This document shows, piece by piece, positions 16,132 to 28,030 of a stretch of 64,000 bases of DNA; the stretch's first letter is position 1, and the number at the start of each line of letters is the position of its first letter. The DNA comes from Rhizophagus irregularis. Lineage: Eukaryota. The notes under the pieces are model-generated. The model ran no database searches, was not told the DNA's origin, and saw nothing but the letters and a program-made list of their open reading frames with translations. The position numbers and the translations under genes are program-made. The stretch is taken from the NCBI RefSeq assembly GCF_026210795.1, contig NC_089432.1:5084001-5148000 (forward strand). Reading direction: 5' to 3'.

Positions 16132-18345
16132 ATGTCTGAAATGAACGAATGGGTTAAGTGGATTGATGAAGCTATTGCTAAAAAGCATATTAAGCATTAC
16201 GAGTATAAATATTTTAAACATATTCAAGAAATTGGTACTGGTGGTTTTGGAAAGGTTTATCGTGCGAAATGGAAAATTCATATCAATATTTTGCGTTAAA
16301 ATCTCTTCTTAATATTGAAGAGGATGCTATTAAGGAACTTGTTCATGAGGTGAATATAAAATATGCATATTTATATGTTATTTCTGTTTAAAAACTTATT
16401 TTATGTATAATTTATATATTTAGATTGAGCTTCAACGTGAAGTTACTTCCATAATAACGTTATTAGCTTTCATGGAGTTACTATTTCAGATCAAGGTAAT
16501 AAATAAAATATTTTTTTAAAAAAATAATATATGTTATTATATTACAATAAATTTAAAATTTATTCTTTTTTTTAGAGAATCAAAGTGACAACATTAAGAC
16601 ATATCTTTTAGTGATGGAGTACGCTGATGGTGGTTCGCTTAGCAAGTATTTGAAAGAAAATTTTGAGAAACTTACATGGGAAGTTAAACTTAAACTTGCT
16701 TACCAGTTGGCTAGTGCCGTATCATGCTTGCATGATGAAGACATAATACATCGTGATTTGGTGATAATTTATCAAATTTATTTATAAAATAATTATTATC
16801 AATTATATTATTTTGCCATAACAATTTATTTATTTTCTTATTATAGCATTCTAATAATGTATTAGTCAATCAAGATACTATTAAATTGGCGGATTTTGGA
16901 TTGTCAAAGAGAATCGAAGCGTCAACTAAAAAGAAAAAAGATTTATTTGATGTAGTTCCTTATATGGATCCAAAGAAATTCAGCAATAGATCATATTCTT
17001 TAAATAAGAAGAGTGACGTATACAGTGTAGGCGTACTTTTGTGGGAGATATCAAGTGGTAAACCACCTTTTTATGTAGAAGGAGAGTCATATGATGGTTG
17101 TTTAGCTGTGCAAATTATGCAAGGCCATAGAGAAACTACTGTTCCTTATACTCCCATTGAATACGTTAAGCTTTATACTGGTAAGTTTAATACTTTTTTA
17201 TTTATTTGTAAAAATAGTATTATAATTGAAAATTTGAATTTTTTTTTAGAATGTTGGGACGACAACCCAAAGAATGGCCATCTATTCAAGAAGTTGTTGA
17301 AAGATTAGATGGTATAATTAATCAAAGAAACGAAAATATTGATGAGAAATGACAAATAAAAATATAGTTTTAAATAGTATTGAAGAATCATCACATGGAG
17401 AATTATCTCAGGTTACTCAAGAATTCAATAAAATGAATACAAAAGAAATAATGGGAACTATGACATCAAGTAATCAAATTATTAACCAAAATTTGTTAAG
17501 TGTAATAGTTAATAATATTACAGAATTTATTTTTGAAGTGGTAAATAATAAGAGAAATAATGATAAGTTAAGACAGAAAGTTATTGATTATTTTAATAAT
17601 CGAAACATAAATCCACAAGAAATTTATAATTGGCTATTTGATAATCAAAATTATAATTCAAATTCAATTTTCTTGGATTTTTTAATTTTTATGGAATTGA
17701 AACAAGTGAAAATAAAAAGATGGCTTTTGATTTATTTATTAATGCTTCTGAACAAGATCATATATTGGCACAATATTTTGTTGGTTTTTGTTATATGTTT
17801 GGAAATGAAACTTCATTAAACTATTCATTAGCTTTTAAATATTATGAAAAAGTAGCTAATAAAGATTATGCAGTAGGACAGTTGTTTACTGGGTTTTGTT
17901 ATGATTATGGATATGGCATAAGTAAAGAACCAAAACTTGCTTTTTATTGGTATGAAAAAGCTGCAAATAATGGAAATATAGTAGCCATGTATAACCTTGG
18001 AAGTTCTTATAAAGATGGAAAAGGTGTTGAAAAAGATATAGATAAAGCAATTTATTGTTATAAAAAATCTGCAGAACAAGGTGATGAAGATGCTCAACAT
18101 AAATTAGAAGAATTAACAAAAACCAACTGGGTATTGTTATAGTAATGGATATGAAAACTTACTCTTTATTGGTATGAAAAATCTGCAAATAATGGGAATA
18201 TAGTTGGCATGTCTAATTTTGGCTATTTTTATAAAATTGGAAAAGATGTTGAAAAGGATATAGATAAAACAATTTATTGGTATAAAAATCTACAGAACAA
18301 GGATATGAAGATGCTCAAGTATGATTAGAATAATGAAAACCAAGT
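16132..18345 (+). pseudogene. Kinase + 4 Sel1 repeats, copy 3, frameshifted, with a duplicated Sel1 tail
   Basis: Same 5-exon layout as copy 4. One A is missing at ~16273 (stop in exon 1), with further indels near 17270, 17349 and 17670. 18120-18345 is a second decayed copy of the last Sel1 repeats. Confidence 0.88.
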
Positions 18346-20837
18346 TATTTATGTAAATTTATTTGTAATCTGTAAACAATTTCAGTTATTTATTAATAAA
18401 TCATTTGTATTATAAATGTAGTGTATACATCTTGAAATGTTTAATTTATAACTATGTTAAATATATTTACAGATAAATTTATATGGCAAATCAGCATTAA
18501 TTAATATTATTAAAATTTCTTGTAATGCGACATTAAATGTTATTTTATGGGTAAAATCATCATGTATTTTTTTAAAGAGTTATATTTTTGAAGTTAGATT
18601 TTTAATTTATTACTAAACTATTGGGAAATTTACTTACCTAAATAAAGGATGAAATTAACTATAATTACTATATTTAATAATTTTATTCATACATTATATT
18701 TTTTAAATTACCAGTACTCTCAAAATTGACCAGTAAAATTTAACACAGAACATTTGATTTTAGACTATTTATTTGCACAAAATAAGTCAACAAAATTCAC
18801 ACTACAAGTAATACATGATTTTCACTAAAAAAATTGATCATTGATCAGTTCATGTTTAATGTTATCTGATAATATGATCAGATGCATGTTCGCATGAACA
18901 TATTTTACCGTAGTTTTAGATTTGTAAGTTTTATCAGACAGTTAATGTCTAAATTAAAAATTGTAATACTGTATGGGAAAAGAATAATCATGATACTAGT
19001 TTTCATATTGACCAAATATTTTTATTCCAAAATTTTCTTTCTTTTTTTTTTTTTATGAAAAAGTGCATTTTTGTTCGGTCTCTGAAACTTAAGGAAATTC
19101 CAACCTTGTATTGTAATTTTAATTTTAAAAATATAGCTTAAACGCCAAAAAAATATCTAAATTTAATTGATATGAGATGTATTTTGTACTGTTGATTACA
19201 TGTGATATAATGGGATATTTTTTTGCTTTTAAATTAATTGCAAAAGTAAATGCTATTACTAAATTTTTTAAAACTTCATTTGGCAGGTTTTGGCCAGAAA
19301 CATCAATTTTTACCGGCACTATATTTTTAATGCTGGTTGATCGTCATAATTTCAGCCACCGGTGATCATCACCCCGGTGATAGTTAGAAAAATTCTATAA
19401 TAAACGTTTAAAGAAAGTTTAAAAAATTTCTTGGGGTGTATAAATTTGATGAGTAAACTTGAAAAGAAACTCTCAAATAAAAATCATGAATTAGAAAATG
19501 AAATCGATTATCGAAGATTTTTTCAACTGAAGTTAAATCAGTTTCAGAACACTGTGGAATATTGGACTGTAAAGTTTCAAATTATTTTTCATAACTTATT
19601 TGGATTTTTGAGGCTGATTCCTATAAAAAAGGAAAATTAAAAAAATTTAATTAAAAGCTTTGAATATATTTTTTTCAATATTTGGGATTTCCGGTTTTCA
19701 TGTTGAAGCCGATTTCCTAAAAAAGAAAAAAAGGTCAGAAATGATTTCTTTTAATAGTCTAGAATTCATTCTTTTGAAACTTACCTGGGATAAAAAAAAA
19801 ATTTTTTTTTAAACCATAACTTGGAAATCCAGCGCCCATTTCGGATCATTTCGGAGCTGGTTTCTCTACAAAGATGGATTTGGTAAAATATACTCAGCTG
19901 AATGGTCAGTTCCTTCTTTTTTTAAAAAAAGATAAATTATTTCAATATTACAGTATAAAAATCCTTTTCTTTCTATGCTTTTATTCAAAAATAAAAGTAA
20001 ATTGATAAGTAAAAAAGATGATAAAAAATTAAGAATTTCCGATTAAAAGAAAAAGTTTTTTTTTAAAAAAAATTTTGGTCATTGACATGTTAAAAAAGGA
20101 CAAAAATTAGTAATAAAAAAATAAAAAATCAAATCGTTTATTAAACGTTTCTTCGAAAAAGTTCAAAATTCTAAAAGAGGAAAAGTTTCGATAAAGTTTA
20201 AATTTTAAAAAGGGGAAAGTTTTGATAGTTTAAAATTTTATTAAATGCTATACATAGTGACTAATTTAATATAAATAGCGAAAGGTTTCAAAATATTATT
20301 TATTTATTTTATTTTATGTGAAGAATGGCAGGATCATCAAAAGGGCAAAACTAACTTATTAAGGAAAAAAACCCAAGGTTTCAAAATATTTATTTTATTT
20401 TATTTATTTTATGTGAAGCCAGACAGCCAAATAAACAGGATAAACTCCCATCGGAGTACAATCCTAATTCTTGTCATCATCCCGCCAGGAACCAATAAAA
20501 GCTCAAGGAAGGACCCTAACTTCTAATTATATAAGAGGGCCATAGCTTATCTTACCGCTACGGCCAACGTAAGGATAAGGAACATCCATGATAATAAAAG
20601 AAAACCATAACGAATGTAAATATATAACAATCTATATAAAAAAAGATCCATATTTTTCTTTTGACCAAAAGGCTACCAACCGTAAATACTGTCATGGTTG
20701 GAATGATTCACACTATTCTAAATTGTTATCTAAAAAAAAGATAAAAAAGAAAACCAAAAGCATGATAGCATATACAAATTAAGAAAAGAAACCTAAATAT
20801 AATAACGAAAATAATTGACTCTAAAACTAAAAAAAAA

Positions 20838-22876
20838 TTATATATTAGCAGAGGAACCTGAAGGATCTGCTTCTGAAGAGTCGTCAGCTTTAGCAGGGAT
20901 GTAACGCCTTCATTTTAATCGATCAATGGAACCATATATGGGTATGGGTAAAGTGTGATGTAGTAAGACGTTTGTATGGACGTCTTTCGATTTCCTTGGT
21001 ATCATCAGAAGTAATGACATTCGAATCCTATTGCGAAGGATTGTTAATATAATATCTTCCGCCTTTAGAAGGAACGTAAAGTTCATCATTCGTCATAGGT
21101 GGGATAACAGATATGCTCTTTCCAAGATTAAAGGCATCGTTGAAGGTGGTCATTTCTTGGTAAAGTTTAAGTTGGAAGTTAATATTACCTTCCATCATGC
21201 TATATCGTGAAGCGAGATTCGACATATTTTGGTGGTGATACTCAGATCGTAAAGAATGCCATTTTATGGCTCAGTTATGGCATTCGTAATGTTTAACACT
21301 TGTGCCGTGTAGGGCAGCTTCTTGCTTTCCTTTCCCTTTAATAAGGTCTTGAATACGATCATTTTCTTTGACAAGCAATTGTTGACGTTCCTCAAGAGAT
21401 GAGCGTGAAGGAGGTGGTGTTGATTTACGTTCAAGATCCAACTTATACATATAAGTAAACCATTCGCGAGATCCAGGAATAATAAATTCACCTGAGGCCG
21501 TATAAAGAGGCTTCTTAGGAATAATGTCTTTGTATTTTGACGGAAAAAACCCATTCGGGATAGGGTTATATTGTTCGACCGTATAAATTAAAAGGTCTTT
21601 CTTGGGAGTAATCTCCTGATTGTAAGGAATCTTGAAGCCATAGTCGGGATAATCAAGACCATGGGTGTATTGAAGATATTTAATCGGCTTGTAGATATAT
21701 TGCGATGGTAAAAATAAAAACCGGTAGCGTTGAGCAGTAATCAGCTGGTGCTTCATTGTATCAAGGCGATTATGTTCCTTGGCATGAAAAATTCATCGGC
21801 ATGCCCTATGATGGCGTATTTTCTGCGCTTTCGCTATTTTAGCATTTTTACTACGCGTAACTGAAAAGGTGTCCAGCCATTTACGATACATTTGCTTATT
21901 CACATGATGTATAACTAAGCCTTTAGTACGAGCAAGATAAGATTCCTTATAACTAATTCCCAATCGTTGGGATACAACATCTTTTTTCCATCTGCAATTC
22001 CATCTGTCATGTAACAAATTAGCATGTGAGCGCTTGTCGTTGACCGGAGTAGTAATGGTTGAGGTGAGGTCCTGACGTCCATGATTTCGGACATTATTGA
22101 AAGTATCATTACGAAAGAAAAGTTGTTGATGCATAACACAGGAGCGTCTACATTGAGACATAACAAAGGGGCTAGGAACTTGACATTTATTACAAGGGTG
22201 TAAAACGGTGAATGTGATGGTTGTTGAGAACAAGGGATATATTCCAAAATGAAAATGATATTTCTTATATGTGAAATTAAAAAAAGTACGAGTCGTAGTA
22301 TTATGTTCACGTAAATTATTAGCACGTGATGAAATCATTTCTTTACGAGCCAATAATCTATCTCGAATAAAAGAAAAAAATTTTTGTTGTATTTTGCGAG
22401 GTAAAACTCTTTGTGAAGAAAAAAAGTGTGTAAGCATACAACTAATTCTATATTTGTCATTCAGTGTTGAGCTCGTGTTGTGATAAAAGATAGGGGTACT
22501 TTTCATATGATAATCATTTGTGTAAATTTTAAGATGAATATCATTGGTGTTTTGAGGTAGATCATTTAACTTGAAAAAGTAACTTCTTGATCGTCTGATT
22601 TCATAAATCTTGTTGTATCCAGCCCTATTTGGACGGGTCACGTGAAATTTAGAAAAACGGAAATTTTCCCACCGGCGAAGAAGAGGAAGAAGGTTTATTA
22701 AAAGGTTTTTTACTATGAGAAGTGTAAGAAGGAGTTGAAGGAGCGTGAGATATAATATCTTTACGAGTAGAAATTTTGTCTAAAACTCTTTTATTAGAGT
22801 GTTGGTTAAGGTTAGTGAAATCATTATTTGGTTTTTCGTAACTTTCATAATCGTCTATGCGAAGAAAAGAGGACAT
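20838..22876 (-). pseudogene. Unit B ORF: basic protein of unknown function, ~680 codons, broken by stops and frameshifts
   Basis: ORF pieces 22649-22918, 21793-22641, 21271-21756 and 21028-21225 are collinear with the unit A protein; the last three share one frame and are separated by single stop codons. No introns are needed. Confidence 0.8.
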
Positions 22877-23505
22877 ATTTCCTTGGGTTTGGGTATAATA
22901 AGAACAGTAAAACCTCATCTTATGCCCGAGGCACCCTTCCGGGCTTCTACCTCTTAAGAGTGTTTATAAAATAAAACTTATAATGAAACCTACGCTATTT
23001 ACTGTGGAAAACTAACAAAAATAAAAAAAGGGGAAAGAGTTTTTTTTTTTTTCCTCCCAAGGTTTCAAAATATTTATTTATTTATTTTATTACTAAAAGA
23101 GTGTTAGAACCCAGACTATTACAAATAAAAGAAGGAAGAGTTCAAAAAGACTTGAAACTAATATATGTGTATAGACCTTTGTTCGTCATCCCCTACGGGA
23201 CCCCACTCTTCGATCTGTACTATTTGATAAAGTAGGACTACGCTAAAAAATCAAATGGGAACAATCAAAAAGCTAATCTAAAAAAAAAGAAAAGTTAGTT
23301 GATCCGTATTTTTCTTTTGGCCTAAGCCACCACCTGTAAATACTGTCATAGGTGGAATGGTAAACACTATTCTTATTGTATATACTATCATTGTAAGTTT
23401 AAAAAGATAAAAAAAAATAAGAAATAGACAACGTCTATATATAAAAATGATTCCAAAATAATGAAATACTAATCTATGAATTCAGATATGAGAACATTAA
23501 TAAAA

Positions 23506-25147
23506 TTATTTAGACGATCCTGCCTGCTCAGAATCAAGAGCTAAAGGAGTATCTAGGCGAGAGCGTTTACGTATGCCATAAGAACTCGAGTTATTATCAA
23601 AGTTGCGATCATTATGTTTCGAAGGACGGTATTCAATTTCTTTGGTGTCATCGGACGTGGATGACTCGGTAGGGAGTGTATTATCCTTATAAAAGAATAC
23701 TGATCGTGTGGTAATACACTTTAAACTAAGAGGAGCTAATACGCCAGGGTAGTTAATAAAAAAAGAATCTATTTCCGATTGTAAGAGTTTCTTCTTTTTG
23801 CTTTTCTTTTTCTTGGAAGGGGTAATAGGTTGAGAATTTTTCATATTAACATGATAAACATCGCTCCACCTCATTAAATCAGACACTTGACGTTGTCAAT
23901 ATTTAACGTTTTTAGAACTAGTGCCATGGTATAAGGCTAAATCATGAATTCTAATATCTTCTTGTATTATAAGATCGGTTATTTCCTTTGAACGTTCTTC
24001 TAGATGCTGTTGATAACGAACTCTAGAAGCTTCACCTTCAACAGTAAGTTCATCAATTCTAGCGGTAAATTTAGCATCATCTGCTTTTCTAAGGCGTTCA
24101 TCATGGGTATCTAAATCCAATTGATACATATAAGTAAACCATTCCCTAAAGCCAGGGCAATAAATGAACCAAAATGATCATAAATAGGATCAGGTGGTAT
24201 TATATCTCGATATTTGAGAGGAATAAACATGTCCGGAGTAGGATTATAAGGAGCGACCGTATATAATATTTCATTGTTAAGAACTGAAGCTGAAGTCGTA
24301 GCTGTGGCAATGGAAAAATTACTTGTAGCCTTTGGTCGGCTGGTCGTATTCGTATTAGTACCAAAATAATGAGGAATAGTAAAATTATAATCCTTTTGTT
24401 TGGGAATATCAACAGTTTTCTTATAACGTAAGTGTTTGAGAGGAGTCGTAAATTTTTGAGATGGTAAGAAAAGGAATCGTCCTTTTTTAGCCGTGGCCAG
24501 TTTCGTTGATGTACTGGAAACAGCTCCTGGTTTAGTAACTTCTTGTGATAAGATACGATGACAAGAGCGTTCGAATCTAATTTGCTGCTTTTTAGCTGTC
24601 CTCAGATTAGGACTTGGAGTTAGTTGGAAGTTATTCATAAGTTTGTGATAAATGTGAGTACGTCCAGGTCTGAGTTTACGATTTGAATTGCAAACAACAT
24701 ATTTTGAGTTATAAGAGATGCCCGTTCTTGAGGAGAATATCGATTTTGATTCTTTTTTTATCCATCGGTCAAATGTCAAATTAGCGTGGAACTGTTTATT
24801 TTGATGTTGATTACTACATGTAAAATCACCATGTTCGTTTCGTACAAAAGCTATTGCAGCTGGGTATTTGTGAAAAAAATGTAAGCCACATCCATATCTC
24901 TTATTAAACATTACTATAGGACAAGGAACCTCACAAGGTCGAGGTAGAATAGATAAGCCTTTTGTCTCAATCATATGGTCACAAGGGATAAAGATACCAA
25001 AATGAAATCTATATCTTTTGTACGAGAAATTAAAAAAAGTTTTCATTGTTGTATTCTTATTGTTGATTTTACTCTCACGTGACTTGATAAACGTGATTCT
25101 ATCTAATAACTTTTGGCGTATCATATCAAAATATTTTTTTTGAATAC
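23506..25147 (-). pseudogene. Unit A ORF, C-terminal part (paralog of unit B protein)
   Basis: Pieces 24111-25124, 23896-24129 and 23506-23886 share FFNFxYKxYxFHFGI, HANL..DRW, GISY, FLFLPSQ, KYxDIIP, HGTS and TSDDTKEIE with unit B; one frameshift near 24155 and one internal TGA. Confidence 0.82.
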
Positions 25148-28030
25148 TGTTAATCGAATAATCACATGACCAGTGATCATGTTACGAATGTTACGAATGT
25201 TACGAATGTTGCAAATGTTACGAATGTTTAATATGTTTAACATGTTAAACATATGCAACATATTAAATATATAACACATATTTAACATATTACATTTGTT
25301 AAATATATAGCATTTATTTAATATTCTTAACATGATTAGCATAGAATTTATTGTTATAAATACATGCGTTCTAAATCAATGTAATAATAGATAATTCTGT
25401 TATATTTTAATAAAAAGCATTTATTAAATAAATTACATCAGGAAGTCACGGGAAAAATATTCATCAAATGTACATCGGTCACTTGATGTACATCATAAAG
25501 AAACGCTGAACATCGGACCCTGCAATGTACTACTGATGTCACAACATTTGATGTTCATCGCCAAATTAAAGATGTTCATCACCTGTACATTACGATTAAT
25601 TAACACATTTATTAATGATATTAAAATACATGCGTTATTTATTATTATACTATCATTATACTATACAAATGTATTATTAACTAATTAATATAATATCTAT
25701 GGCTATTTTAAATCTATATAATATGTTAAATACTAGATAAAAATTGATTTCCAAAATAAACCTATAAAGAAAAAAATGAAAATGTTAATAAAACTTTTCG
25801 TTAAAAATAAAAAAAAGTAAAATTCGAAGGGATATATATACCTTCGAAATAGGATCCAGTCGCGTCTTGGACCTACAAAAGAAAAAAAAATGAAACCGTT
25901 AGTAAAAACGTTTCGTTAGAAAAAATAAAAATTTGAAGGTACTGTATATACCTTCGAAATTCCATATAACTGAGTGATCCCAGATCCTACAAAAAAAAAG
26001 CAAACAAAAAACGTTAGTTTACGTTTCTAAAAGAAAAATAAAAAAATCCAAGTTTCGAAGTGAATTGAAATCTTCGAAACTTACCAATCCGTTAAGATTC
26101 GTCTTCTTTTTCCGTTCTTCAGAAACCCACCCAAGATCTAAAAGAAGAAAAAGAATTAGAAATAACAAAAAAAATTAAAAAAATTAAAGATTCGTATTGT
26201 CCTTACGAATCTTTGGGTTTTCTGTTCTTCAGAAGCCCACCCAAAACCTAAAAATCAAAGAAAAGAACGGTTAGAAACCGTTCATAATAATAAAATAAAT
26301 AAAAATAAACCAAAGATTCGTACTTACGAATTTTGGTTTTTTCCATTTTTCAGAAGACACCCGAGAAACCCAAAACCTAAAAATAAAATAAAAAGAACGG
26401 TTAGAACCATTCATAGTATTAAAAAAAATAAATCTAAGGTTCGTAATATAATACTTACGAACCTTAGTTCTCCATTTTCCGTTCTTCAGAAGACCACCCG
26501 ATGGAACCTATAAAAAATAAAATAAAAAGAACAGTTAGAACCGTTCATAGTATTAAAAAAATAAATCTAAGGTTCGTAATATAATGCTTACGAACTTTAG
26601 TTTTTTGTTTTCCGTTCTTCGGAAGATCACCTGACAGAACTTATAAAAAATAAAATAAAAAGAACGGTTAGAACCGTCCATAGTATTAAAGAAATAAATC
26701 TAAGATTCGTAACTGAATATAATACTTACGAACCTTAGTTCTCCATTTTCCATTCTTCGGAAGCCCTTTCGAGACACCGAACCTATAAAAAAAAGAAAGG
26801 AACGGTTAGTAAACCGTTTCATAATAATAAAAAAAATAAAAAAAAACCAAGATTCTTACGAATCTTGGTTCCTCTTTGCGAAATCCCCTTCCACCATCCC
26901 CCTTTCCCAGTTTTTTACCTTAAAGTCTGGTTTCGTGAACAAGCTGGCGTCCTACAAAAAAAAAACAATGAAAAAGAAACGTTAGATCGTTTCTTAAATT
27001 AAAAATAACAAAAAATCTTCCACTTTCCAGTTTCTTACTACCTTAAAGTCTGGTTTCATAGTATTCAAGCCAGCGTCCCCCTAGTAAACGTCCTACAAAA
27101 AATAAAATAATAAAGAGAAACGTTAGTTCGTTTCTTAAATTAAAAATAACAAAAAATCTTCCCCTTTTCAGTTTCTTACTACCTTAAAGTCCGGTTTCAT
27201 AGTATTCAAGCCGGCGTCCCCCTAGTAAACGTCCTACAAAAAATAAAATAATGAAAAGAAACGAAAAAAAAAGATAAAATTAAAAAAAAAATAAAAAAAA
27301 AATAAATTAAAAAAAAGTAACGAAACTTACAGGTGTGAGAAAAAGAAGAGAACGAAAGGGAAGTGAAGGACGAAAGGAAAGGGAAGGATATAGGAGAAGG
27401 ACGAAAGGACAAGGGGACGAAGGGAAGTGAAAGAAAGGGAAAAAAAAAGTTTAAAGTTTTTTATTAGACTTTTTTTTATCAAAAAAAAGATCGATCGGCA
27501 AACTGATCACATGATACCGATCAATACTAACTGAAATTTACTAGTTAGTAATTATATTTTTATTATAGCAAAGATATGTACATTGAATATTTATTATTAA
27601 ATGCTGCACATCATGATAAAAATTTCATTGATGATGTTCATTAATGTTAAATATTACTTGTACATTAAAAAGAATGAATATTGCAATGTACATGATTTGC
27701 ATAAATGTATATGTAATGTACATTTTTTTCGTAACTTCCTGATGTATCTCATTGTTTATTTTATAGTTTGTTATATTTGTGAGTCAGTATTTGCGTCTGA
27801 GTGTATATGCCCGTGTGCAATACCGTATTCGCATTTGACTGAAATTTCATTTTATTTTATTGTGTAACCTTCGTAAATCGATCGACAGTGATACATTTAC
27901 TAATAATTTCATATAGTTTATTTCACTTTGCGTTCATTAACATTATTTAATATTTATTTTATTCATAATCCTTCTGCTTACCATACACCCATACGCTTAT
28001 TTTTATAAGCATACAAGAACTGGCATAACA
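25148..28030 (+). repeat. 5' LTR (572 bp plus a 2.3-kb TIR-element insertion)
   Basis: 25148-25435 and 27747-28030 match the 3' LTR almost base for base; contains GTTACGAAT 9-mer repeats. Confidence 0.95.
25436..27744. mobile_element. Non-autonomous TIR element with TA target duplication (Tc1/mariner-like or another TA-TSD family), 2309 bp
   Basis: TIRs CATCAGGAAGTCACGGGAAAAAT / ATTTTTTTCGTAACTTCCTGATG flanked by TA. The empty site AAATTATCTCATT is visible in the 3' LTR at ~35388. No transposase ORF. Confidence 0.92.

Follow-up and report, generated by a model that had tools for sequence, protein, structure and literature searches.

A conserved structured RNA module in the 3' untranslated region of DUF8211-encoding repeated units of Rhizophagus irregularis

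We analysed a stretch of 64,000 nucleotides (nt) of Rhizophagus irregularis DNA (contig NC_089432.1, positions 5,084,001 to 5,148,000), hereafter the window, in which two tandem cassettes, unit A and unit B, lie on the minus strand. A conserved island shared by the two units is a structured RNA module in the 3' untranslated region (UTR) of repeated units that encode proteins of the DUF8211 family, and it lies on the strand of the open reading frame (ORF). Its two hairpins were retained with different stems in copies from metagenome contigs. A pseudoknot between the loop of the first hairpin and a downstream run is weakly supported.

Architecture of the module in the window

The island measures about 73 nt in each unit and begins 150 nt (unit A) or 136 nt (unit B) after the stop codon. 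From 5' to 3' it is composed of S1, a hairpin of 6 base pairs (bp) with a 14-nt loop, a second hairpin, S2, the A-rich run AAAGAAAAAUAY and the motif GGAUC. The parts are as follows, in positions of the window.

23301..23373, minus strand: unit A module (from the alignment; covariance model score 76.3 bits)
23355-23350 with 23335-23330, minus strand: unit A S1, CCACCT paired with AGGTGG (direct reading)
23349-23336, minus strand: unit A S1 loop, AUGACAGUAUUUAC, 14 nt
23329-23318, minus strand: unit A S2
23317-23306, minus strand: unit A A-rich run and 3' strand of the pseudoknot, AAAGAAAAATAC
23305-23301, minus strand: unit A GGATC
23343-23338 and 23311-23306, minus strand: unit A pseudoknot strands
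5' flank of unit A S1, minus strand: AGAAUAGUGU..CAUU
20645..20720, minus strand: unit B module (from the alignment; covariance model score 69.8 bits)
20701-20696 with 20681-20676, minus strand: unit B S1, CCAACC paired with GGTTGG (direct reading)
20695-20682, minus strand: unit B S1 loop, identical to the 14-nt loop of unit A
20675-20662, minus strand: unit B S2
20661-20650, minus strand: unit B A-rich run and 3' strand of the pseudoknot, AAAGAAAAATAT, with AAAUAU giving one G·U
20649-20645, minus strand: unit B GGATC
20689-20684 and 20655-20650, minus strand: unit B pseudoknot strands

An earlier note, written from the letters of this DNA, had quoted minus-strand sequences for both units, and these were found where it had placed them. 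It had also described two compensatory changes in S1 around an invariant 14-nt loop. Both are present: pair 4 (C-G to A-U) and pair 6 (U-A to C-G) differ on both sides between units A and B. The run after S2 reads AAAGAAAAAUAC in unit A and AAAGAAAAAUAU in unit B, and in both units a U-rich tract follows GGAUC.

The module stands as an island. When the 3' regions of the two units were aligned with MAFFT, 61 of 75 columns were identical in the module against 15 of 34 immediately downstream, and the surrounding 3' sequence barely aligned. The coding DNA of the two units is 57-68% identical. The statement of the earlier note that the flanking UTR does not align held for most of its length, with the exception of T-rich stretches, which align, and of a second shared island at the unit end. 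The exact loop 14-mer occurs in the 64 kb at two sites only, those of units A and B. When up to two mismatches were allowed, five matches were found against 1.04 expected, a number reached by none of 100 shuffles. A covariance model of ten sequences (see below) detected no further copy of the module in the 64 kb.

We rejected a coding explanation of the island. The single frame that unit A leaves open is broken by a stop in unit B, every change in the stems would alter the encoded amino acid, and the lengths of the two copies are 2 nt apart. The comparison with Rfam proposed in the earlier note was run with Rfam 15 (4227 models, which should include LINE (long interspersed nuclear element) 3' elements and self-cleaving ribozymes), and no family matched the module. 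With cmscan of window positions 18000-28000 at E up to 10, nothing overlapped 20645-20720 or 23301-23373. With cmscan of the eight metagenome loci described below at E up to 5, there was no match at the module and there were two weak snoRNA-like matches elsewhere.

Covariation in distant relatives and the pseudoknot

Metagenome and viral contigs were scanned with a pattern made of the loop and the A-rich run only, with both stems left free. The viral set (viral_contigs) gave no match, and the metagenome set (metagenome_contigs) gave 14 loci. Eight of the 14 (L004, L006, L007, L008, L010, L012, L013 and L014) share the architecture with different stems; no stems were found in the other six. The prokaryote genomes (genome_contigs), scanned with a pattern that freed one pseudoknot pair, gave 30 matches, all by chance, with none above 27 bits under the ten-sequence model. 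Four of these (L030, L031, L037 and L040), all from one bacterial metagenome-assembled genome, are an unrelated palindromic repeat, GACAGGATTTAC..A-rich..GGATT..AATCCTGTC, that matched the loosened pattern by chance and resembles a terminator-like repeat family.

Covariation was counted over ten sequences, namely units A and B and the eight metagenome loci. All 60 cells of S1 were paired (59 Watson-Crick and one G·U), and all six of its pairs change on both sides; eight distinct S1 stems occur among the ten sequences. S2 was paired in 58 of the 65 cells with letters on both sides, and six of its seven pairs change on both sides. For the complete structure, pairing reached 96% of cells, compared with 75% in 500 shuffles, and none of the shuffles matched the observed pairing or covariation score. 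Pairing fell to 33-54% in a control in which the 3' partners were slid by 1-3 columns. RNAalifold recovered both S1 and S2 unaided. Across the ten copies 26 bases are invariant, and the invariant single-stranded runs are UGACAGUAUUUAC in the S1 loop and AAAGAAAAAUAC after S2.

As a non-circular test, an Infernal model was built from units A and B alone. This two-copy model scored the eight metagenome loci at 34.6-62.9 bits, while the other 36 pattern loci (6 metagenome and 30 prokaryote) scored 21.3 bits or less or were unlisted. The model, the search and the covariation counts, all of which the earlier note had proposed, were positive for S1 and S2, and support the conclusion that the two helices are a selected RNA secondary structure on the ORF strand. 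The module appears so far to be limited to Rhizophagus and relatives from soil, as judged from the ten DNA copies. In all eight metagenome copies a third hairpin begins one base past AAAUAC (minimum free energy -5 to -14 kcal/mol); at its position the window units show weak U-rich pairing with a long loop instead.

The earlier note had read a G-U variant as fitting an RNA of this strand, and its call agrees with the alignment. G·U occupies nine cells of the ten-sequence alignment and A·C three. Most paralogs resembling unit B carry U for C at 20696 with no listed change at the partner position 20681, which would give a U·G pair on this strand only. The G·U excess and the variant at 20696 favour an RNA of the ORF strand.

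The earlier note had further proposed that loop GTATTT pairs with downstream AAATAC/AAATAT. The complementarity stood in all ten copies, where GUAUUU faces AAAUAC (AAAUAU in unit B, with one G·U); its covariation is barely testable, with one G·U and one inferred double change as the available variation. The pseudoknot strands were paired in 60 of 60 cells (59 Watson-Crick and one G·U) under a search pattern that fixed 11 of the 12 bases, and five of the six pairs show no variation in the ten DNA copies. Because both strands are invariant and 11 of 12 bases were fixed by the pattern, the ten copies cannot test this pairing. The double change comes from P0030, a Rhizophagus diaphanus protein record that reads through the module: ..IVCIIPPMTEFTGGNFMLKEKFRS.. 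(IIPPMTEFTGG..LKEKFRS), to be compared with IPPMTVFTGG and PKEKYGS in the translations of unit A. The change of V to E implies that the loop strand has A for U as its second base, and that of Y to F that the predicted partner base has U for A. Read from the second codon positions of the protein record, one pseudoknot pair would thus be exchanged on both sides. P0030 (606 aa) reads through the module at residues ~550-580 and gives the only sequence variant of the pseudoknot; the read-through is probably an artefact of the gene model that fused the UTR to the ORF. Taken together, the loop-to-downstream pseudoknot is weakly supported by these sequences. For unit A, RNAfold proposed an alternative closing helix, GUGUUU/AAAUAC, which was rejected because the U's at 23362-23363 are private to unit A and nearly all paralog depth differs there.

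Two further sequence elements near the module were considered. The earlier note had described a second shared motif nearer the tail:

23179..23202, minus strand: second motif of unit A, UCCC-GUA-GGGGAUGACGAACAA
20470..20492, minus strand: second motif of unit B, UCC-UGGC-GGGAUGAUGACAAG

The motif is present, but at chance level: two matches were counted, a number equalled or exceeded in 10 of 100 shuffles. It was absent downstream in all four distant loci with at least 230 nt of downstream sequence, and it is common to the two window units only. The other element is a U-rich tract with one C (UUUUCUUU[U]), a perfect complement of the invariant AAAAGAAAA. A U-rich tract complementary to at least 8 nt of the A-rich run lies upstream of the module in four of the ten copies (L004, L008, L010 and unit B), compared with a background of 6-10% of 122-nt windows, and such complementary tracts lie downstream of the module in units A and B. 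The tract was rejected as a part of the consensus, since it is not in all copies. It could possibly form a further long-range helix or triplex with the A-rich run.

DUF8211-encoding units as carriers

By sequence comparison, the two window cassettes are tandem decayed copies of an intronless DUF8211-family ORF. The coding regions and the unit ends are as follows.

23506..25181, minus strand: unit A, remnant of the DUF8211 ORF, stop codon 23508-23506
20838..22918, minus strand: unit B, DUF8211 ORF with the N-terminal region, stop codon 20840-20838
23040..23095, minus strand: unit A 3' end, (UAAA)n with AAUAAA repeats, AUAUUUUGAAACCUUGGG (23074-23056), AGG and A13 (23052-23040)
20372..20416, minus strand: unit B 3' end, (UAAA/UAAAA)n then AUAUUUUGAAACCUUGGG
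20279..20349, minus strand: third unit end with extreme 5' truncation, ~70 nt, CUUCACAUAAAAUAAA..AUAUUUUGAAACCUUUCG, directly behind unit B

Unit A is 5'-truncated, its first residues corresponding to about position 190 in full-length relatives, and contains one frameshift near 24114-24177. Unit B has in-frame stops at 21793-21795, 21271-21273 and 21028-21030 and a change of frame near its end. The ORF of unit A was 100% identical to the R. irregularis protein P0001 (78% of the query, E 1.5e-187). All 45 protein matches were from Rhizophagus, most of them labelled DUF8211/PF26638 in precomputed annotation; a local Pfam search assigned no family to the window ORFs. Full-length relatives are 580-614 aa long and colinear with the window DNA, with no introns. 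No longer (fused) DUF8211 protein was found by search, and a reverse transcriptase (RT) was detected neither within the units nor in fusion with the DUF8211 family. A search of a protein atlas gave no usable match. A distant ORF, P0047, had four relatives, all from metagenomes.

At five metagenome loci the module is preceded on its own strand by DUF8211-like coding sequence that has 30-50% protein identity to the Rhizophagus proteins. These loci are L007, L008, L012 and L013, together with L014, which is assigned by its likeness to L008. Counting units A and B as well, the module stands behind a DUF8211-type ORF in seven of the ten copies, and in the metagenome loci it begins 135-230 nt after the ORF end. 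The upstream sequence of L004 and L010 was too short to judge the presence of an ORF.

In a structure prediction, the DUF8211 protein is modelled as a folded alpha/beta domain, a coiled coil of 100 residues and basic runs. The full-length model (mean predicted local distance difference test score, pLDDT, 57) gave only generic coiled-coil matches with Z of 6.1 or less. The domain model (mean pLDDT 73) gave a best match of Z 3.6 and no Foldseek match at E 0.001 or better. In the N-terminal coding region of unit B, positions 22500-22603 (the HLKIYTNDYH region) had a summed DNA-like depth of 18,490, compared with 165-525 in most unit B coding bins, and a summed poly(A) RNA depth of 30.5. Within the N-terminal region of the family, this stretch is either strongly conserved or repeated on its own.

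From their ends and copy number, the DUF8211 units look like non-autonomous retroposons. The family has more than 100 copies: in the DNA-like run X9, summed depth was 21,716-44,458 over 23124-23435 and 7,221 in the module bin of unit B, compared with 100-250 for single-copy contigs. The shared island at the unit end, (UAAA)n with AUAUUUUGAAACCUUGGG, is 33 nt long at 97% identity and occurs three times in the window. The unit ends resemble those of processed transcripts. In unit A the final AAUAAA is followed after 22 nt by an A13 run, and in L014 an A8 run comes after the tail. L008 and L014 are 81% identical over 801 nt, a likeness that ends at the (UAAA/UAAAA)n tail. The module lies 155 nt from the tail in L008 and L014 and ~210-250 nt in units A and B. 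The two units and the 70-nt fragment are arranged head to tail. None of the ten copies has an RT ORF upstream of the module. Exactly where the homology of unit A to full-length DUF8211 genes stops, a 9-nt microsatellite (ACATTCGTA, minus strand) occupies 25179-25232.

Other elements were observed beside the units. Directly past the third hairpin of L004, a 546-codon frame is open (L004:46-1683, minus strand of the locus). At its end stand a CxxC...H...C knuckle and the first part of an RNase H domain (YTDGS..KAELSAI), an arrangement that resembles the C-terminal portion of a LINE ORF2; the frame had no Pfam match. L010 and L004 share 191 nt upstream and diverge where this frame begins. From these features the frame is probably a truncated LINE, a separate insertion behind the module. 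In L014 an ORF for a MULE/FAR1-type transposase (L014:1018-2472; PF10551, E 1.4e-23) follows the DUF8211 unit, ~400 nt beyond its tail. In the window, the region upstream of unit A at 25750-27300 is made up of arrays of tandem repeats; each repeat is 110-141 nt long and contains a palindrome of the type GAACGGTTAGAAACCGTTC and a conserved block, TTTTCCGTTCTTCAGAAG. On the plus strand, 16964-18340 encodes part of a protein kinase and, after it, ORFs with Sel1 repeats (PF08238, E 1.5e-30), with internal repeated units of 110-220 nt.

Transcription of the module is indicated but not proven. The RNA data were raw, unstranded poly(A) RNA-seq reads under the same species label (run X24); a search of sequencing runs listed no RNA run with a match. 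At 95% likeness nearly all of the X24 reads that matched the window fell on 20419-20587, with a summed depth of ~16. All of them carry four fixed differences, so that their source is an expressed paralog. At 85% likeness the summed depth was 24.6 in the module bin of unit A, 4.6 in that of unit B and zero in most coding bins of unit B. Loose ends of poly(A) reads at 23301 run into U-rich sequence specific to paralogs, not into poly(A), and no pile-up of read ends was seen at the module borders in the poly(A) RNA reads. The paralog matches the 167-nt stretch 20422-20588, which belongs to the distal part of the unit B 3' UTR on the minus strand, with differences at 20460, 20495, 20535 and 20552. 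It was the best covered in the poly(A) reads, with one X16 contig at depth 33 and an RNA/DNA ratio 10-30 times that of other bins. This stretch holds the AUGAUGA-like second motif.

Possible functions and known systems

We tentatively propose, by analogy, that the module is a recognition signal for assembly of a ribonucleoprotein or for a helper RT, and we rate this reading at somewhat less than an even chance. The proposal is made because the carrier is retroposon-like and because stringent-type LINEs offer an analogy. The module would be the cis signal by which the RNA of the unit is taken up by a protein partner. Pairing of GUAUUU with AAAUAC would form a compact H-type pseudoknot with S2 and the A-rich run as its third loop, and the invariant bases might be read by a protein, either the coiled-coil DUF8211 protein of the element itself or the RT of a helper LINE. 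Once packed into a particle, the RNA would return to the genome through target-primed reverse transcription starting at the AAUAAA-repeat/poly(A) end. Multimeric RNA-packaging proteins often have a coiled coil, as the DUF8211 model does. The earlier note had proposed a cis-acting RNA element, and the selected structure of S1 and S2 partly bears this out; the roles that it offered, RT recruitment, a ribozyme or protein binding, are candidates.

Several results weigh against a recognition signal for mobility. No RT-encoding element carrying the module was found among the ten copies, and the only LINE-like ORF near a copy, that of L004, lies downstream of the module. No DUF8211 coding sequence was detected in the 972 nt upstream of the module in L006. 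Structure searches gave no match indicating RNA binding by the DUF8211 fold. Target-site duplications were not identified; the sole candidate, an 11-nt AAAUAUUUUGA at the 5' junction of unit A and at the tail, lies in homologous coding sequence. The module stands 155-250 nt upstream of the tail and does not abut it as the stem-loops of stringent LINEs do. The X24/X9 ratio of the module bins was no higher than that of other repeated bins, and carry-over of DNA is possible. For the 26 bases that are invariant despite 30-40% protein identity, a host factor that evolves slowly is no worse a fit than a fast-evolving protein of the element.

Such a host factor is central to a second explanation, in which the module controls the stability, translation or localisation of DUF8211 mRNAs after transcription, whether the units are mobile or not. 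Two single-stranded runs that are invariant across very diverged copies would suit a slowly evolving host protein, the loop holds an AUUUA core, and a distance of 135-230 nt past the stop is typical for control elements of UTRs. We consider this explanation rather unlikely, with no match to a known motif or Rfam family, with the module found nowhere else in a 64-kb window that has other genes, and with its travelling only with one repeated retroposon-like family. The same two invariant runs resemble elements of fungal poly(A) signals, namely the efficiency and positioning elements of the yeast type. The module could accordingly be imagined as a structured proximal signal for 3'-end processing, with UAUUUA of the loop as efficiency element, AAGAAAAA as positioning element and the hairpins fixing the distance between them, and the U-rich tract past GGAUC in both window units would fit such a signal. 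Covarying helices are atypical of such signals, however, the loose read ends at 23301 enter U-rich paralog sequence and not poly(A), and the genomic copies go on for 155-250 nt to the AAUAAA-repeat tail, so we hold this to be quite improbable. We assign an equally low probability to a separate small RNA whose scaffold is processed from the 3' UTR as a partner of the DUF8211 protein, like the RNA partners encoded at the ends of some transposon genes. A gene whose protein matches no known fold is constantly paired with a structured RNA of invariant loops, but the module is well inside the unit and not at its boundary, read ends are not piled at its borders, and searches of the protein gave no recognisable domain, nuclease-like or otherwise.

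A small self-cleaving ribozyme is very improbable. Variable helices surround invariant junction and loop bases, and a loop-to-downstream pseudoknot is followed by a hairpin, a layout that recalls pistol-type ribozymes. The topology differs, however, in that S2 is a closed hairpin and not a helix enclosing the pseudoknot strand, and no Rfam ribozyme matched at E up to 10 (window) or up to 5 (loci). Both sides of the module also stay joined to the tail in genomic copies, which indicates that the copied RNA was not cut there. Even less probable is a hairpin acting at the DNA level, or a stretch homogenised by gene conversion, without any RNA function. More than 100 copies could homogenise each other, but homogenisation would keep the stems identical, while eight different stems all pair; the flanks diverge freely and the loop does not, and the ratio of G·U to A·C (9 to 3) favours RNA of the sense strand. 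A bolder idea, which we regard as improbable but marginally less so than 3'-end processing, is that the DUF8211 units are a new kind of mobile element of arbuscular mycorrhizal fungi, in which the new-fold protein and the invariant-loop pseudoknot RNA would act as a dedicated machine, with the RNA as scaffold, guide or self-processing part and not as a passive LINE tag.

About half of the R. irregularis genome consists of repeats, and two-thirds of its transposable elements are unclassified, according to one report (PMC11075540). Against this background, a family of more than 100 copies with a DUF8211 protein of unassigned function is now linked to a retroposon-like architecture, and gains a sharply defined and deeply conserved RNA signature that is absent from Rfam. 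At ~70 nt, with two covarying helices and 26 invariant bases, the module is small enough for direct probing, binding and mobility assays, and its covariance model can be used to trace the family across Glomeromycota genomes and soil metagenomes. A literature search found no paper naming DUF8211, and a search for UTR stem-loops of Rhizophagus retrotransposons gave no such element in titles and the beginnings of abstracts.

The closest known systems are the 3' tails of stringent-type LINEs and their SINE (short interspersed nuclear element) partners. The ORF2 proteins of stringent-type LINEs bind a stem-loop of the cognate 3' tail RNA (PMC4176376), and such tail stem-loops are found in eel UnaL2/UnaSINE1 and zebrafish ZfL2 (PMC1636434, PMC4176376). 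The module resembles these tails in being a conserved 3' UTR stem-loop of a retroposon with a simple-repeat tail, with a conserved loop and a stem kept in structure, and in being a candidate for recognition by the copying machinery. It differs in having two hairpins and a probable pseudoknot and in lying 155-250 nt from the tail and not adjacent to it. Its carrier encodes no RT, and no LINE sharing the module was found among the ten copies. Mammalian HAL1 is a non-autonomous LINE derivative with ORF1 only. The DUF8211 units are similar to it as one-ORF units without RT that have a coiled-coil protein, 5' truncation and an A-rich tail, whereas DUF8211 has no detectable likeness to LINE ORF1 proteins and its coiled coil is predicted to lie C-terminal to the folded domain.

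ENE triple-helix elements occur in transposon RNAs of plants and fungi (PMC12501189), and like the module they are structured elements in the 3' region of retroelement RNA near A-rich sequence. An ENE stem clamps the poly(A) tail by means of a U-rich internal loop, whereas the A-rich run of the module is internal and invariant. No U-rich internal loop of the ENE type was seen, S1 and S2 being short uninterrupted helices in all ten copies. H-type pseudoknots with A-rich third loops are known from viral frameshift signals and 3'-UTR pseudoknots. The module is similar in that its loop would pair with a downstream strand and its A-rich connector could occupy the minor groove of S1, and it differs in that S2 is inserted as an extra hairpin in the third loop. 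Recoding is not at issue, since the module lies past the stop codon (136-150 nt in the window, 135-230 nt in the loci). Structured signals conserved in the 3' UTR of retroposons are a known kind; the module departs from them in combining two hairpins with a probable pseudoknot, in lying at a distance from the tail, in its RT-less DUF8211 carrier and in being limited so far to Rhizophagus and relatives from soil.

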